DNA from: a virus
Lineage: Duplodnaviria; Heunggongvirae; Uroviricota; Caudoviricetes
Direction: 5' to 3' (one strand)
Length of the DNA: 63,271 nucleotides
Virus record (IMG/VR): IMGVR_UViG_2939521961_000016
Numbering within the stretch: position 1 is the first letter of the stretch; every line of letters begins with the position of its first letter. Below are positions 42,001 through 48,000 of this stretch, piece after piece. Made by a program: the position numbers.

Positions 42001-45000
42001 ATCAGTCGTGACGGGTCATAGTTAGGGTGATCACGCCATACAAAACTGATTTCTTCCCACGGCAAACCGTATTCGGTGAAACGTTCCGCTGTCTGGTTCA
42101 GCAGGATGGTGTACGGACAGACGAACATCACCCGCATACCACGTTCAACCATTCCGGCGGTGACGAATGCTGCAAGACCAGTTTTGCCAGAGCCAGTGGG
42201 TGCGTACATCAGGTACGTGCGATGCTGTTTCCACTGGTGCCGCAGCTGGTTTAAACCGCGCTCCTGAGCAAAGTTTGGGGTGATTTTCAGCATGATGCCC
42301 CCTTGCTACGTGATTTACCCGTTGCCGGGATCACGTCGATCTCATCGCAAACGTATTGATCCGGATTACGTGAACAGCGCAGAAGCACGATACCAGGAAT
42401 GCCGTATAGCTTGAGTCTGCGCAGTTTCAGTATTGAACGTGCCCGTGGTGACGCTCTGTCCACCTCGATCGCGCACCGTTCACCAGATGGGGCAACGACC
42501 ACGATATCGACGAATCCGCGCTTACCGTTGCCCATATCAACCAGATAATTACGTTCGATCGCCAGTCCGGCATCACGCAATTTGGCAGCCAGCACATAAT
42601 CAAACGTGACCTTGTCTTTTCCGGTGTAGAATTTGTTTCCGAGCAGGTTGATAACCACATGTTTGATGAACATGGTACTATTTCCACTGTAATAGTTAGC
42701 ATGATAATAATTTTGCCAGAAACTATCGCACCCTATACAGTGATCTACCTAACCTATGGAGCTGTCTTTCTGGTAGTGCCCTTACGGGCACGGATGTTAC
42801 AGATCTGCCCCCTTACCCCCTTCTTAGTAAAATTTCAGGTAAAATAATTTCATATGCAATTATTTCACAAAAAATAGTCACCTTGATGAGGTCTATTCCT
42901 TCCGTATCGCTACTGGCGAAATCATCCAGCCACGGCTGGCTCTCGCGTACTTCTGGACATACACCCGTAACCGGGTGTTGGCGCTCCGTCTTGCCCTGTT
43001 GCCCTTCCTGAACGATACAGGCTCCTTGTCCCACTCTTCCTGGTACACTCTCGCGTACTCTGCTGCAATTTTTACCCGGGTGGTCGGGTCTAGCTGTAAC
43101 AATTGCTCCTGTATCCAGTCCCGATCAGCATCGCTGTACTGATCGGGCATAACCGTTTTGATTTGCCTGTTCACTCACACCTCCGATGGAGGGTTATCAG
43201 GCTGTTTGCCTTACATGAAGCGGAATACCGTCTTCCATGTTTGGGTAGTCATGCGGGTTTAGTTCATGGGGAGTTACATTCCAGTCTGTAGCTTTTGCCC
43301 ATTCAATGGCTTTCCGCCCCTGAGGCATGTATCTCCCTGTAATAACCCCACTGACAAATCCCTGAGAAACTCCAACAATCGCCGCAAAATCGGCTTGTCT
43401 GATAGAGCTTTGTCTCAAGTACTCGTCAAGAGTCATAGAGATCCTCCCATTTCAATTTTCCGATATTAGCTTACCTGATTTAAATGTCAATAGGCTAGCT
43501 ATTTGCTAAATATTTGTGTTGCTAATAAAATTGGAGGCACTATGACGAAGAAAATTACAATTACTGACAAAGACATCCAGAACGCTGAACGACTGCGCAA
43601 AATCTGGGATGAAAAACGGAAACAGCTATCCCTAAGCCAGGAAAAAGCCGCAGATATCCTCGGCTTCAAAACGCAGGGGGCTGTTAGTCAGTTATTGAAC
43701 GCAAAAATTGCGTTAAATACTGAAAATACCCTTAAGTTTGCGGCTTTATTACAGGTTCCTGCGGAAGAAATTAATCCAGATCTGAGTGATTTGTTACGCA
43801 GTATTCGTACCCACACACCGGGAAACAGGCGTAACCTGTTCGAGAAATATTACGAATATCCGTTACTCTCCTGCGTACAGGCTGGAGCTTTCTCAATGGA
43901 TGATTTTTCGTACACCGCAAAGGATGCGATTAAGTGGATCTCCACCACCACAAAAGCCAGTGACAGGTCGTTCTGGCTGGAGGTCAAGGGGCATTCAATG
44001 ACCGCGCCGCAGGGTGGTAAACCCAGTTTCCCTGAAGGGATGCTGATACTCGTTGACCCTGAACGGGAAATCGAGGATGGCGATTTTTGCGTGGCCCGAA
44101 TGAACGGCGATGAATTCACCTTCAAACGATTCATTCGTGAGAGCGGTAAAGCGTACCTGGAGCCACTCAACCCACGATTCGACATGATTGAGTGTAACGA
44201 AAACTGCCAGTTTGTCGGAAAAGTCATAAAGTCGCAGTGGAATGATGAGACTTTTGATTGAGCTCACAGAGCGATATCAATAACCTTGCAGGGATGCACT
44301 TTTCGGGCATTATTTGAGCTTACCAAAACCTAAAATAAGGTGTCTTACATGAAAAAAGCATTTGCTGCATTGTTCGTCTTGTTGTCACTGGTAGCTTCGA
44401 CTCAATCATTCGCGGGTAATTGCCAGCACGACAATGATACTGCTGCTGACGGCTCTCGTTGTGGTGGCCGTTCTTCTGATTCTCGTCCTGGCGGTGGTGG
44501 AATTCGCTAAAAACAAGGCCGCTTTCGCGGCCTTTATCCGGTGTGCCGTAAAACCAGTTCTTCATGTCGGTGAGGATGTCAAAGACGAAGGTGACATTAA
44601 GCCCCTGTGTGATGGTTGACTTCTTTTTCCAGCGCCTTATTAACAAATGCGTTCAGTGATAAATCTTCTTCCATCGCCATTTCTGCTACCCGACGATGCA
44701 GTTCGGGATCAAGCCGGACGTTAAACACGCCTTTAAACGGGGTATCAGGTTCCTTTCCATCCTCCACACAAGACTGTAAATACAGATCAACTGATGTTTT
44801 AAACTCCTTTTCCAGTTCAGCTAACGTAGAAGCCTCATAAGTTACCAAGTCCCGAATAAATGCCAGCTTTCCATAGAGGATATTATTTTCAAAATCTGGT
44901 TCAACTGTACCTAAATATCCTTTATATTTTAGATGCTTCATAATACCCCAGCCTCTTTCAGATTCTGTTTAATCGCTTTCAACGTGCCACCTTTGACATA

Positions 45001-48000
45001 ACTTTCCGGATGAGGGCGATGCATTAATATGGTGTGGTTGATTTCAGCATTGAAAAACCGCACTCTTGACCCCTGCATTTCCTTTTTGACATATCCCAGA
45101 GAGGAAAACAAAACGACCAGCTCATCCCATTCAAACGTTTTTTTACTGTTTAAAAATTTTGCCAGTAGCTTATCTGCTTTCCCCATGCCCACATAATCTC
45201 ATCTTCGCTACACTGTAACTAATTATAGTTACATGCAGTGTTTTTGTCAAAAACCACCAACCCCGCAGGGTTCTATTTGACTCGTTACTGCTGTTCGCTT
45301 CTTGGTTTTTTTGCTTCCGACTTTCTCTATCAGTTTTGCTAATTTGCTTTTTGTTGTATTCTCTCCGGTGATACATTTAATTTCGCAAAATGCGGAGTAG
45401 AGCATGGCATATTCAGCTGCTGCCGTAGCTAACGCCTTTATTGATAAGGCTAAACGGGGAGAAATCAAAGATTTAACTCCGATGAAGCTACAAAAATTGT
45501 TGTTCTATACTCAGTCGTGGCATCTGAAACTATTCAACGGAAGGCCATTATTCGACGATCTGTTTGCGCGCTGGCCTTACGGGCCTGTAATACCGCACCT
45601 GTACCACATGTTAAAGAAATATGGGGGCGATGAAATACAGGAAATGATCAGCATCATCATTGATTCAGATGGGGAATGGAAACGAATCACACCGACAATA
45701 CAGAAGGGTGACACAGAAACCAGGAGGCTGATCGACAGAATTGTTGAGGTATACGGCAGCTACAGCGGAACCGAGCTTTCTAACATGACCCATGCACCAA
45801 ACGCGGCCTGGAGTAAAGGTCAACCTGATGGTGGCCCAATTCTTCATACTGATATGGCAAACCACATTCATTGATGTCTGAACTTGAAAAAATCACAATC
45901 CCGAACGGAGCAGCATTTCCAGGCACAGATATATCAAGCCTTGAAGATACGCCACCAACAACAGAATCTTCATCAGATGGAGATAATTTAAACGCCCAGC
46001 GCGCAGCAGATGCAAAATCTAACAGGGAATTAAGAGAAAAATTTGCAGAAAAAGCCTATAAAGTTGCCAAGTATGGGCTTTACTGGTGGGCTAGTGTTTT
46101 GTTGTTGTCTGCAACAGGCCGCGTCATGGGGAAAGAAATCTTTTCAGATGAAGTGCTCATTGCGGTGACCGCTGCTTCAACTCTGAATCTGTTCGCTGCT
46201 TTTCTTGGTGTTATCAGGGGGCTTTTCCCTCACGCCAAATCTCACACAGAGTAACCGGCCCCCGCGCCGGTTTTTCTTTACGCATCCTCCATCTTCATTA
46301 TCCTCGCTTATATTTTTTACATAAATAAATTAATCTAAAAATCAATCATATAGATTAAAATTAAATCAAATTATTAGCCTCACTATTGACTATGATCAGC
46401 TGAGCTTATTATATTTTACCCAAGCCAGAAACATCGCGCCCTTACACAGGGCTACATAAATCAGTCGTACGGCGCGACTTAACCCGCCGCAAAATGCTCT
46501 TTAACAATCTGGAGCTTTACAGCGTCAATGACCTGTTTAGACCCCTACACGTAAACGTGCTGTATCATCGGGTGCGATCCGGTCGATGAGAGAGTATCCC
46601 CGCGCGAGAGCGAGAACGGCGTGAGAACGGGCAACACTGGCAGGAAGTTGGCGCTGACCAATACAGGGAATGTTTTGGGGTGTGGTGAAGGGTTCATGGA
46701 CGGGAATATGTCGCACGTAAAGCGGCGAGGCCCGAGGGACTATTGCTGAAGATAAGTAGGCCGAATCGGGTCGAAATGGGTCTCCCACCTGCCACATCGC
46801 CAAAGCATTTCCGAGAAAGGACGGTATTGACTGCGTGTGATGTCGGGGGCTATATTTGGCGAACACCTTATAAAACGGGTGTCGGGATTAGGACCCCGCT
46901 GACAATCGAGGCGATACAGACGCGCCAGCGTCTTTTTTTGTATCGATATACACGCACATCTTATCAATGGTGGGCTGTATGGGGCCGACTTCGGTCGGGC
47001 TGGTTCCCTTGATTGCCAGTAGTCCTAACCCTGTACAGTCCACCGCCAGCGAGCTTAGGACCTCCTGCGGTGGTTCTCAATCACCAATCAAGGAGGCTGC
47101 CATTATGGCTACTATCCCTGCCCTTTCTCAACCTGAAATCACCATTACCAATGGTCGCGTTGTCACAACGTCTATTGCTATTGCTGAATTTTTTGACAAG
47201 CGGCACGACGACGTTTTAAAAAAAATCCGATTGATGGATTGTTCTACGGAATTTAACGCCCGCAATTTTGCGGACGTTACCTACACCGACGCCAAAGGCG
47301 AACAACGCCCAATGTACCAAATCACCAAAAACGGATTCGTTTTTCTGGTGATGGGCTTCACCGGCAAAAAAGCAGCTGCATTCAAGGAAGCCTACATCGC
47401 TGAATTCGATCGCATGGAAAAACAGCTATGGGAACAGAAACAACTGGCCCTGTCTTCTCCTGCGATGAATATCAATTTCCCTTTGTCGTGGTTTTCTGAG
47501 CATCACCCCTACGCCACGATGAATTATGTTGATCGAAAAACATTGCAGCTTGATACCTCCGTCTTATTCGACATGCCAAGCCCTGCAATGCGCATATTTA
47601 ATGAATTACGTCGCAACGGCTATAACGTTGACGCCGCTGTCGCTGAATTTAACGCCTTCAAACATCTGACGGAAGAAATGCGCCGTACACTACAGGATAT
47701 TTCAAGATTGTCAGATCAAAATGCCCGAAAAGGCTTCTCTGTAAGCCTCTAAAGAACTAATAGTTTGACAAAGAACTAATAGTTTGACAATGCCGCAGCG
47801 CTTATCGCATACTGACCGCACTACAACGTCAGCGGTCAACCGCACCCGATAGCTTTGCGGCTTTTTTATGCCTGTTCACAGGTATCGCCATATCAATGGC
47901 GGGTCGAGAGAGCCTAATACAACACCCTTTCGGGAAATACGCTCCGCCGTCTGACGCGGTAGTTGAAGCCCGCCACCCCACTAAGGTGGCAGTCAATACT

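Follow-up and report, generated by a model that had tools for sequence, protein, structure and literature searches.

The stretch of DNA analysed here (the window, 63,271 bp) is a Stx2a prophage in which a hicAB gene pair adjoins the repressor gene. The pair is an unremarkable HicA/HicB cassette that had been annotated before and is almost identical to one tested on IncX4 resistance plasmids, and it very likely works as a self-repressed toxin-antitoxin cassette from the clade that includes the original hic locus of Haemophilus influenzae. Its value for annotation is small, since RefSeq already gives the genes of an identical locus their correct names, HicA and HicB, and tests exist for a near-identical copy from a plasmid.

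As we picture its working, sigma-70 RNA polymerase would initiate about 28-30 nt ahead of hicA, from a consensus promoter (45250-45222), and produce a single hicA-hicB mRNA, in which the two genes would be translationally coupled via an ATGA overlap and which would end at a hairpin at 44534-44515. HicA would be bound by the N-terminal, partial RNase H-like domain of HicB, and a HicB dimer would sit, via its ribbon-helix-helix (RHH) domain, on a palindrome spanning the -10 and +1 positions, so that an intrinsically very strong promoter would be held low. If HicB synthesis were to stop, either through loss of the element or because transcription is shut off, free HicA would arrest growth, and by analogy with other HicA toxins the arrest would act on RNA.

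The gene pair and its carriage by plasmids and prophages

The first-pass annotation had described HicA-like and HicB-like genes that overlap by 4 nt and run opposite to cI, and the ORF calls bear this description out. The toxin gene hicA (44938..45186, minus strand) specifies 82 aa when counted from the ATG used in RefSeq, and the antitoxin gene hicB (44597..44941, minus strand) specifies 114 aa; the four shared nucleotides are ATGA, whereby the hicA stop codon overlaps the hicB start. A GTG at 45192 is in frame with hicA and as an alternative start would give two additional residues. The repressor gene (43503..44261, plus strand) encodes a LexA/cI-like protein that matches Peptidase_S24 and HTH_3 in a profile search. 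The toxin-first order, with the antitoxin immediately downstream and the ATGA overlap, is common to most related loci, and the 82-aa HicA together with the 4-nt overlap recurs in most of 80 loci from many genera.

Domain searches had been proposed as a check on both gene names, and they were positive, with scores above the cut-offs: HicA matches Pfam HicA_toxin PF07927 over the full profile (positions 1-58; 43.6 bits against a cut-off of 27, E = 3e-11) and phrog_8887 'toxin' (1e-34), and HicB, an antitoxin of the RHH type (Gerdes class 4), matches PF05534 (71.1 bits against a cut-off of 21, E = 7e-20) and phrog_9151 'HicB-like antitoxin' (2e-50). In the AF2 model of HicB (pLDDT 82.6), strands within residues 3-37 are followed by a helix at 40-60, and this N-terminal sheet and helix (~residues 1-60) is predicted to be the partial RNase H-like domain that binds HicA. 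The best Foldseek matches are B. pseudomallei HicB (6g26_B, prob 1.0, E = 0.02) and TTHA0281 (2dsy), at low TM values of 0.44-0.46. The C-terminal part of HicB (~72-112) is a DNA-binding ribbon-helix-helix with a KGVFNVR ribbon (FNVR at 73-76) and helices at 79-91 and 96-112; matches to an Arc-like repressor PHROG fall on residues 72-112, and there is a weak match to the CopG RHH 9kkd.

The same cassette, with the -35 hexamer at one end and the hicB stop codon at the other, is also present on IncX4, IncI2 and IncF plasmids, and the homology to the plasmids is bounded exactly by these two elements (44596-45253 of the window). Each of the two proteins shares 96% identity with its IncX4 counterparts. 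Across plasmid and prophage copies both genes are under purifying selection, with dN/dS of 0.01-0.07 at dS up to 0.83 (0.01-0.07 for hicA, 0.03-0.045 for hicB). Since the cassette moves as a precise unit between IncX4, IncI2 and IncF resistance plasmids and Shiga-toxin prophages, these two pools exchange addiction or defence cargo.

The overlapping hicA^O^B of the IncX4 plasmids pJIE143 and p14EC007a, whose HicA proved toxic and was neutralised by HicB (Lin et al. 2025; PMC11878559), fits the description of the prophage cassette, and we infer from other IncX4-typed records that the two may be equated. The 4-nt ORF overlap, the consensus promoter and the operator core are common to both. The prophage copy differs in its location, which is the Stx2a immunity region rather than a conjugative plasmid, in a 5' leader that is 7 nt longer, and in the right arm of its palindrome, which is perfect because it has an A where the plasmids have a G.

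Hairpins lie on either side of the prophage cassette. An intrinsic terminator for the hicAB transcript was found by terminator scan at 44515..44534 (minus strand), 63 nt beyond the hicB stop; it consists of an 8-bp GC-rich stem, AAGGCCGC-GAAA-GCGGCCTT, followed by GTTTTT, and the hairpin is also seen in an RNA fold of 44505-44600 (minus strand). It also faces the converging transcript of cI and a small protein. Directly upstream of the -35 hexamer, the same scan found a terminator-like hairpin (45259..45272, minus strand), AACCCTGCGGGGTT, followed by GGTGGTTTTT, which probably shields the hicA promoter against read-through. In alignments to the IncX4 plasmids a different hairpin with a T-run occupies the matching position, and the insulating hairpins of the two copies are unrelated.

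The slot after cI holds variable cargo among related phages, for example a restriction-modification (R-M) system in Lyz12581Vzw, and a Panacea-domain pair lies next door. In lambda the same post-cI slot holds rexAB. That hicAB serves to stabilise the prophage or to exclude phages is no more than a plausible guess, and there is a considerable chance, if not quite an even one, that the cassette is selfish cargo of no benefit to prophage or host and is kept by its own addiction and mobility. The defence-type cargo just described and the strong purifying selection on hicA and hicB argue against such selfishness, whereas its distribution in 5,426 E. coli genomes (just 25 chromosomal places, 467 on plasmids) argues for it, as does a search of HicA, HicB and their neighbours with the PADLOC models, which matched no family at E <= 0.01. 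The IncX4 copy confers only a slight competitive advantage, about 3:1 after 80 generations, and hicAB of pJIE143 could be deleted directly (PMC11878559). HicAB2 of a P. putida prophage is a working toxin-antitoxin system, yet prophage stability and phage defence were unaffected by it (PMC12894663).

HicA and the arginine at the catalytic position

The AF2 model of HicA (pLDDT 95.2; a1 20-29, b1 33-36, b2 41-46, b3 51-56, a2 66-79) has a dsRBD-like alpha-beta-beta-beta-alpha fold with an additional N-terminal helix, and its best Foldseek matches are to B. pseudomallei HicA (6g26_E/F, target TM 0.68-0.72, rmsd 2.4-2.7 A) and then to TTHA1913 (1whz). The protein carries a G39-S40-R41 turn and an H56-R-P-H59-P motif. 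G39-S40 aligns to the G-S of 4c26, 6g26 and 5yrz, and the Gly of the beta1-beta2 turn (Gly22 in B. pseudomallei) is retained here and in 147 of 148 clade representatives.

The locus has one real oddity, in that Arg (R41) stands across the clade in place of the catalytic His of HicA. The canonical residue, at the start of strand beta-2, is His24 in both B. pseudomallei and gonococcal HicA. Position 41 is R in 129 of the 148 representatives and H in a single one, and H56 (144/148) and H59 (147/148) are nearly invariant. In the AF2 model R41 lies at the start of beta-2, where a His is essential in characterised HicAs (PMC12297915, PMC3969222). A profile of 118 clade members puts R41 on the H24A position of B. 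pseudomallei HicA (GSAHHF, 4c26/6g26) and on the His of GSH in S. pneumoniae HicA (5yrz), through an alignment to the solved HicAs that is weak (E = 0.005).

Because the canonical catalytic His is absent, the assumption of RNase activity is weaker for this protein than for the characterised HicAs, and no report of such activity for the Haemophilus/IncX4-type HicA clade was found in the literature consulted. The occupation of the catalytic-His position by Arg41 led us to consider that this HicA might not be a canonical RNase, and that it might use a different catalytic set (H56 and/or H59) or arrest growth through non-cleaving binding of RNA or the ribosome. We regard this departure from the canonical RNase as rather unlikely, given that this HicA keeps the fold as well as the Gly-Ser turn and the PHP motif, and that the PHP-motif His is dispensable in gonococcal HicA (PMC12297915). 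The toxicity of the overlapping-ORF-type IncX4 HicA (PMC11878559) proves activity and is silent on the chemistry.

For the clade as a whole, to which the founding family member belongs and which forms about 1,900 clusters at 50% identity, the exchange of the catalytic His for Arg and the fixed H-x-P-H-P motif make it possible, if only tentatively so, that an active-site arrangement or a non-cleaving inhibition of RNA or the ribosome is used that is unlike those of the biochemically studied HicAs; a further possibility, held equally tentatively, is that the Stx2a-prophage cassette acts in phage exclusion. An Arg-for-His exchange throughout so large a clade is a cheap target for mutagenesis, and it bears on how HicA toxins really work.

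The promoter and its palindrome

The hicA promoter (P-hicA, 45222..45250, minus strand) has a -35 hexamer TTGACA at 45250-45245, a spacer of 17 nt and a -10 hexamer TATAAT at 45227-45222, and it scores 12/12 in our scan, exactly the minus-strand consensus promoter that had been claimed from the sequence. It is the sole exact TTGACA-N17-TATAAT in the 63,271-bp window, where ~0.008 would be expected (2 x 63,271 / 4^12), and no exact match arose in 100 dinucleotide-preserving shuffles. The -10 hexamer is indeed embedded in an 8-4-8 palindrome (45214..45233) that reads TGTAACTA-TAAT-TAGTTACA on the minus strand (45233-45214) and tgtaacta-atta-tagttaca on the plus strand, and that covers the -10 hexamer (45227..45222) together with the predicted start site (A at 45216 or 45214). 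Although the palindrome is unique in the window even when up to 3 mismatches are allowed, a perfect 8-4-8 palindrome is by itself not rare (63,271 / 4^8, ~1 expected per window), and this one carries weight because of its placement on the -10 and its conservation.

Promoter and palindrome hold constant amid diverging flanks. The IncX4, IncI2 and IncF plasmids and a second prophage all retain the two hexamers at their 17-nt spacing, and across six contexts with unrelated flanks the palindrome is constant except for one A/G position, against a synonymous-site divergence of 0.15-0.83. It accompanies hicAB into plasmids that lack cI. The same inverted repeat, of the form G(T/C)AAC-N8-GTT(A/G)C and centred on the -10, is found again across the Haemophilus-type hicAB clade, distant genera included, and is kept in 46 distinct upstream regions with the half-site variants GTAAC/GTTAC and GCAAC/GTTGC; many loci of the clade have a second copy over the -35, and in the Pasteurellaceae sites the right arm is degenerate. 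In register, 82.6% of the cells of the clade-wide repeat are paired, as against 18-51% when slid, where the anchoring of the alignment on a partly palindromic core inflates the symmetry at columns 7-20 and leaves only columns 4-6 and 21-23 unaffected. Real covariation between the two sides is modest, and relatedness among sequences can be enough to outdo the shuffle control in the absence of any constraint.

RHH- and HTH-type HicBs repress via palindromes, and the main operator of Y. pestis (BS2) overlaps the -10 (PMC11594946, PMC10865869). Autorepression by HicB is supported here because promoter and palindrome stay constant and the same repeat recurs across the clade, so that the proposal of a HicB autoregulatory operator gains strong support from these comparisons, and the conserved palindrome is very probably HicB's own binding site. 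The strong, tightly repressed expression foreseen in the first-pass annotation fits the finding that IncX4 hicA mRNA is not above a chromosomal reference gene (PMC11878559). On this comparative evidence, tG(T/C)AAC-TAnAnTnA-GTT(A/G)Ca defines a testable candidate operator consensus for the Haemophilus-type HicB clade, for which no published operator was found in the literature consulted; in its design the -10 hexamer itself forms the spacer between the half-sites.

It is very improbable that the inverted repeat acts instead as an RNA hairpin in the hicA leader (in attenuation, stability or translation control), for although the region would fold at -14.2 kcal/mol (z = -2.3) if transcribed from further upstream, the terminator-like hairpin stands just upstream of the -35, the left arm and loop lie upstream of the predicted start because they contain the -10, the leader between 45216 and the ATG lacks structure (-1.9 kcal/mol, z = +0.6), and the loop has been kept TATAAT-like, which a hairpin does not need. 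No more credible is an operator of the phage repressor or Cro (OL-like) or of a host factor that would tie hicAB to the lysis-lysogeny switch: the palindrome is indeed part of the immunity region, situated some 950 bp downstream of cI, and the intergenic DNA around it faces the early-left genes as well, but this candidate is largely refuted by the presence of the same 20-bp site and promoter with hicAB on IncX4, IncI2 and IncF plasmids without such a repressor, by hicAB-linked sites and promoters in Acinetobacter, Pasteurellaceae, Thiomicrospira and others, and by the absence of the motif elsewhere in the window, including the stretch between cro and cI, whose repeated motif is TTGCTAAT/ATTAGC.

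Other HicAB loci

The H. influenzae hicAB locus, which named the family (PF05534), encodes a HicB 62-66% identical to that of the prophage and a HicA that is likewise of 82 aa, with GSRVRF and H-K/R-P-H-P; it has the ATGA overlap and a GTAAC-TATACT... site upstream of hicA. The Haemophilus chromosomal sites differ in their degenerate right arm and weak -35 and lack the consensus promoter.

The lambda-immunity phages mEp234 and HK106 (EF120460.1, annotated immunity region) carry hicA-hicB in the same slot of the lambdoid genome, with cI on one side and the left operator/promoter on the other; a GCAAC...GTTGC palindrome stands just upstream of hicA. Their proteins are 35% (HicA) and 43% (HicB) identical to the prophage pair, their half-site spacing is one base longer and there is no consensus promoter; their hicAB is co-oriented with cI, whereas that of the Stx2a prophage is opposed.

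Y. pestis HicA3-HicB3 and B. pseudomallei HicAB, the latter giving the best structural matches to both prophage proteins (Foldseek), resemble the cassette in gene order, in the RHH domain of HicB and, in what is predicted for the prophage HicB, in a partial RNase H-like domain and in autorepression at palindromic sites, the main one in Y. pestis lying over the -10 (PMC11594946). Sequence similarity to these systems is marginal for HicA (profile E = 0.005-0.26) and absent for HicB, and their HicAs have the catalytic GSH His where the prophage protein has GSR and lack its additional N-terminal helix and strand. The hicAB of E. coli K-12 shares the family name and toxin-first order, but its HicB has an HTH domain instead of RHH (PMC10865869), its HicA is of 58 aa and gives no meaningful alignment with the clade profile, and its promoters form a two-promoter arrangement (PMC11594946).

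The hicAB cassette and its products

The cassette described here is a new prophage-borne representative of a known and partly characterised hicAB cassette. To published knowledge of it the present comparisons add a putative clade-wide operator consensus, precise cassette boundaries that an Stx2a prophage has in common with resistance plasmids, and an Arg-for-His substitution in the HicA toxin. The two minus-strand ORFs overlap as the first-pass annotation had read them: hicA (45186-44938, minus strand) is an 82-aa ORF with the ATG that RefSeq takes as its start (an in-frame GTG lies at 45192), and it is directly followed by the 114-aa ORF of hicB (44941-44597, minus strand), with an ATGA common to both. 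Domain searches bore out the family names proposed at that stage, since both products exceed the Pfam cut-offs (43.6 bits against 27 for HicA_toxin, and 71.1 bits against 21 for HicB). In PHROGs they fall in the families 'toxin' (1e-34) and 'HicB-like antitoxin' (2e-50), respectively, and in the chromosome of E. coli JNEC-KY204, to which the window is 100% identical, RefSeq labels them HicA toxin and HicB antitoxin.

The AlphaFold model of HicA (pLDDT 95.2) places an extra helix and a short strand before a dsRBD-like alpha-beta-beta-beta-alpha core, and among known structures it comes closest to HicA of B. pseudomallei and TTHA1913 of T. thermophilus. The HicB model (pLDDT 82.6) consists of an N-terminal sheet and long helix followed by a ribbon-helix-helix (RHH), with B. 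pseudomallei HicB and TTHA0281 as its closest structures. The HicB of H. influenzae, the source of the family name, is 62-66% identical to that of the window, and the cassette belongs to class 4 of Gerdes' scheme, i.e. hicAB with an RHH-type HicB (PMC10865869). Neither protein gave a useful match in single-sequence searches of PDB sequences, a HicB profile recovered no solved HicB from the same sequences, and an 11-sequence HicA profile reached the solved HicAs at E ~1 only, so that a profile of 118 sequences was required. The clade profile aligned meaninglessly with E. coli K-12 HicA (probability 2%), and the NCBIfam search returned no HicA model and, for HicB, only a sub-threshold match to YlcI/YnfO.

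The hicA promoter and its putative operator

The promoter of hicA (TTGACA-17 nt-TATAAT; 45250-45222, minus strand) matches the consensus exactly, as no other promoter in the 63-kb window does, and 0 of 100 dinucleotide-preserving shuffles gave such a match, in keeping with its earlier description as perfect and rare. Its -10 hexamer lies, as had also been noted, inside an 8-4-8 palindrome of 20 bp, TGTAACTA-TAAT-TAGTTACA (45233-45214), which occurs once in the window when up to three mismatches are allowed. Chance alone would give about one bare 8-4-8 palindrome per window, and the meaning of this one rests on its position and conservation. The -35 hexamer, the 17-nt spacing, the -10 hexamer and the core TGTAACTATAATTAGTT(A/G)CA are kept in six contexts with unrelated flanks, among which the spacer sequence, the leader and all DNA further upstream diverge. 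The sole core change among these contexts is the A of the window, G elsewhere; owing to this A, the palindrome of the window's copy is perfect. In a neutral 20-bp stretch, several substitutions would be expected at the synonymous divergence of the adjacent genes.

We also fetched 80 loci that encode HicB relatives, each species being represented by a single genome. Most of these loci have an 82-aa HicA and the same ATGA overlap. Among their upstream regions, 46 distinct ones place a -10-like hexamer between G(T/C)AAC and GTT(A/G)C, mostly at 6-30 nt from where hicA begins; in a few of these regions the anchor chose an upstream copy, ~54 nt from hicA. The hosts of this repeat include Acinetobacter, Pasteurellaceae, Photorhabdus, Xenorhabdus, Thiomicrospira, Colwellia and Marinobacterium. 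In this alignment of related sequences, anchored on a partly symmetric core, 82.6% of cells across the 46 regions pair in register, a share that falls to 18-51% if one arm is shifted by 1-3 columns. The base pair beyond the anchoring core is C-G in 13 regions, T-A in 5 and T-G in 12; covariation is modest, and the right arms of the Pasteurellaceae are degenerate. Many Acinetobacter and marine loci have a second copy of the repeat, whose right arm provides a TTGCAA -35 hexamer, an arrangement reminiscent of Y. pestis P-hicA3, which has two operators, the main one covering the -10 (PMC11594946). The ribbon of HicB, K-G-x-F-N-V-R, is almost invariant, in agreement with the invariant AAC/GTT core of the half-site. 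Residue 72 of the ribbon varies with operator base 6 (Val with T in 12 of 13, Ser with C in 6 of 9), a co-variation on which we do not rely because it is confounded by phylogeny. Conservation in the six contexts and recurrence across the clade together make the palindrome a very probable HicB autoregulatory operator, in line with the original reading.

Two other readings of the palindrome were considered. That it acts as a hairpin in RNA is unlikely: its left arm and loop precede the A (45216 or 45214) at which transcription is expected to begin, the leader between that point and the hicA ATG is unstructured, and a terminator-like hairpin lies directly upstream of the -35. That it serves cI or Cro as an operator is excluded in practice. 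It goes along with hicAB both on plasmids and in distant genera, and the prophage has no second copy of it; the cro-cI intergenic region lacks it and instead repeats TTGCTAAT/ATTAGC. No further HicB-type sites were found elsewhere in the prophage window either, which makes phage genes unlikely targets of regulation by HicB, the probable ligand of the palindrome.

On the evidence of sequence and comparison, a very strong sigma-70 promoter would be held low by a HicB dimer lying across the -10 and +1, a single mRNA would carry toxin before antitoxin with their translation coupled, and a GC-rich hairpin 63 nt beyond hicB would end the transcript. The N-terminal domain of HicB would then sequester HicA, and HicA would arrest growth once HicB synthesis stops. 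Toxicity and neutralisation are published for hicA^O^B of IncX4 plasmids, and the remaining steps are proposed by analogy with characterised HicAB systems.

Mobility of the cassette and the active site of its toxin

The cassette occupies 25 chromosomal and 467 plasmid places across 5,426 complete genomes of E. coli, and in PLSDB it is present on 794 plasmids, nearly all of them conjugative. Besides a copy from a second prophage, the comparison took in plasmid copies of types IncX4 (two), IncI2 (one) and IncF (two); HicA and HicB of the IncX4 copies are each 96% identical to the proteins of the window. Nucleotide homology with the plasmids begins at the hicB stop and ends at the -35 (window 44596-45253); the transferred unit therefore consists of the promoter and both genes. 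In comparisons with four other copies, hicA has a dN/dS of 0.01-0.07 (dS up to 0.59) and hicB one of 0.03-0.045 (dS up to 0.83), and both genes are under strong purifying selection. A cassette with 95% protein identity to the enterobacterial one, a perfect palindrome and a 16-nt promoter spacer occurs on JAEXBS010000011.1, which is labelled as a Bacteroidetes metagenome-assembled genome; this contig probably stems from contamination during binning or from a plasmid.

Lin et al. coined the name hicA^O^B for the overlapping-ORF hicAB of IncX4 plasmids and reported that in E. coli K-12 its HicB completely counteracts an otherwise toxic HicA, that its mRNA does not exceed that of a chromosomal reference gene, and that it confers only a slight advantage in plasmid competition (PMC11878559). 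From IncX4-typed records that fit their description we infer that the window's cassette is the counterpart of the one they tested.

The profile of 118 clade members matches the solved HicAs weakly (E = 0.005), but the alignment is nonetheless clear. G39-S40-R41 of the window's HicA aligns to G-S-A (H24A) of B. pseudomallei HicA and to G-S-H of S. pneumoniae HicA, and P58-H59-P60 to P-H-P in both. HicA of B. pseudomallei and gonococcal HicA both require the histidine that opens beta-2 (PMC3969222, PMC12297915). At this canonical catalytic position the window's HicA has Arg (residue 41), as do the founding Haemophilus HicA and 129 of 148 representatives of the clade, a family of about 1,900 clusters at 50% identity; H56 and H59 of H56-x-P58-H59-P60 are almost invariant among the same 148. 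The catalytic histidine is one defining feature of the characterised HicA family, and the window's HicA is without it; Arg41 leaves its fold and profile membership unaffected. Since the IncX4 homologue is toxic, the clade is active; even so, the chemistry of Haemophilus/IncX4-type HicA may not be that of textbook HicA.

The cargo slot beside the repressor gene

The prophage adjoins a tRNA-Arg gene and has stx2a, three tRNAs, the Q antiterminator and lysis genes on one side and gam, recT and exo on the other. Genes for tRNAs Ile, Arg and Arg lie upstream of stx2a A/B (within 35874-37732, minus strand; A subunit at about 36431-37390, minus strand), which confirms the window as an Stx2a-converting prophage; a match to the STnc100 sRNA is found at 35874-36075 (minus strand). 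The hicAB genes are situated between the cI-like repressor gene and the early-left genes, and they converge on cI and on the gene for a small secreted or membrane protein that follows it. The stretch from the repressor to a pair of genes headed by a Panacea-domain gene is a variable cargo slot (window 44262-45403; 2439-5418 and 942-3636 in two other fetched loci, L002 and L009). It contains the small secreted or membrane protein and hicAB in the window, a Clp-fold serine protease and hicAB in the 2015C-3121 prophage, and a BsuBI-like restriction-modification system in phage Lyz12581Vzw. A megablast search of the phage collection found the cassette in no phage and matched only the adjoining non-coding 45265-45400, upstream of the Panacea gene, which has 87% identity to 23 Stx2/Stx2a phage records and is unannotated there.

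A different hicAB, 35% and 43% identical to the window's proteins, is present in the lambda-immunity phages mEp234 and HK106, where it lies between cI and the left operators, is co-oriented with cI and has a GCAAC...GTTGC palindrome of its own. In lambda the slot after cI is that of rexAB, and hicAB in this slot is thus already on record from these two phages. In mEp234 (EF120460.1, 2383-2470) the palindrome TGCAACTAGATTTCAGTTGCA lies just upstream of hicA; its half-sites are those of the clade with a spacing one base wider, and the mEp234 HicA has Gly at the position of Arg41. A role of the cassette in stabilising the prophage or in excluding other phages, as first suggested, is conjectural. 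The IncX4 copy is weak in its effect on competition (PMC11878559), and PADLOC had no model matching the cassette. The HicAB of a P. putida prophage had no effect on stability or defence (PMC12894663), and a review of HicAB calls a defence role unvalidated (PMC11594946).

Divergent from hicAB and beside it is the gene for a Panacea/SocA-domain protein (45404-45874, plus strand; Pfam 6e-22), whose stop overlaps by 1 nt a gene for a 127-aa protein (45874-46254, plus strand) that has no Pfam family, belongs to phrog_33656 and looks hydrophobic. This pair (45404-46254), a candidate second toxin-antitoxin pair, is kept in Stx2a phages such as Lyz12581Vzw. The TTGCTAAT/ATTAGC motifs of the cro-cI intergenic region (43437-43530) recur at 45335 (45328-45343) and at 46371 (46371-46415), the last of these adjoining a promoter-like TTGACT-18-TATATT (46386-46415, plus strand) and a palindrome at 46391-46408. 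The motifs are candidate repressor operators and the promoter-like sequence a candidate PL-like promoter; on that reading, both hicAB and the Panacea pair would lie between cI and PL. Finally, an isrK sRNA followed by a C4 antisense RNA occurs in two copies (46863-47050 and 58613-58795, both on the plus strand; Rfam, above the gathering score), the first of which lies directly upstream of, and runs into, a Rha-family gene at 46967. This arrangement resembles antirepressor control of the P1/P7 type, here inside a lambdoid Stx phage.
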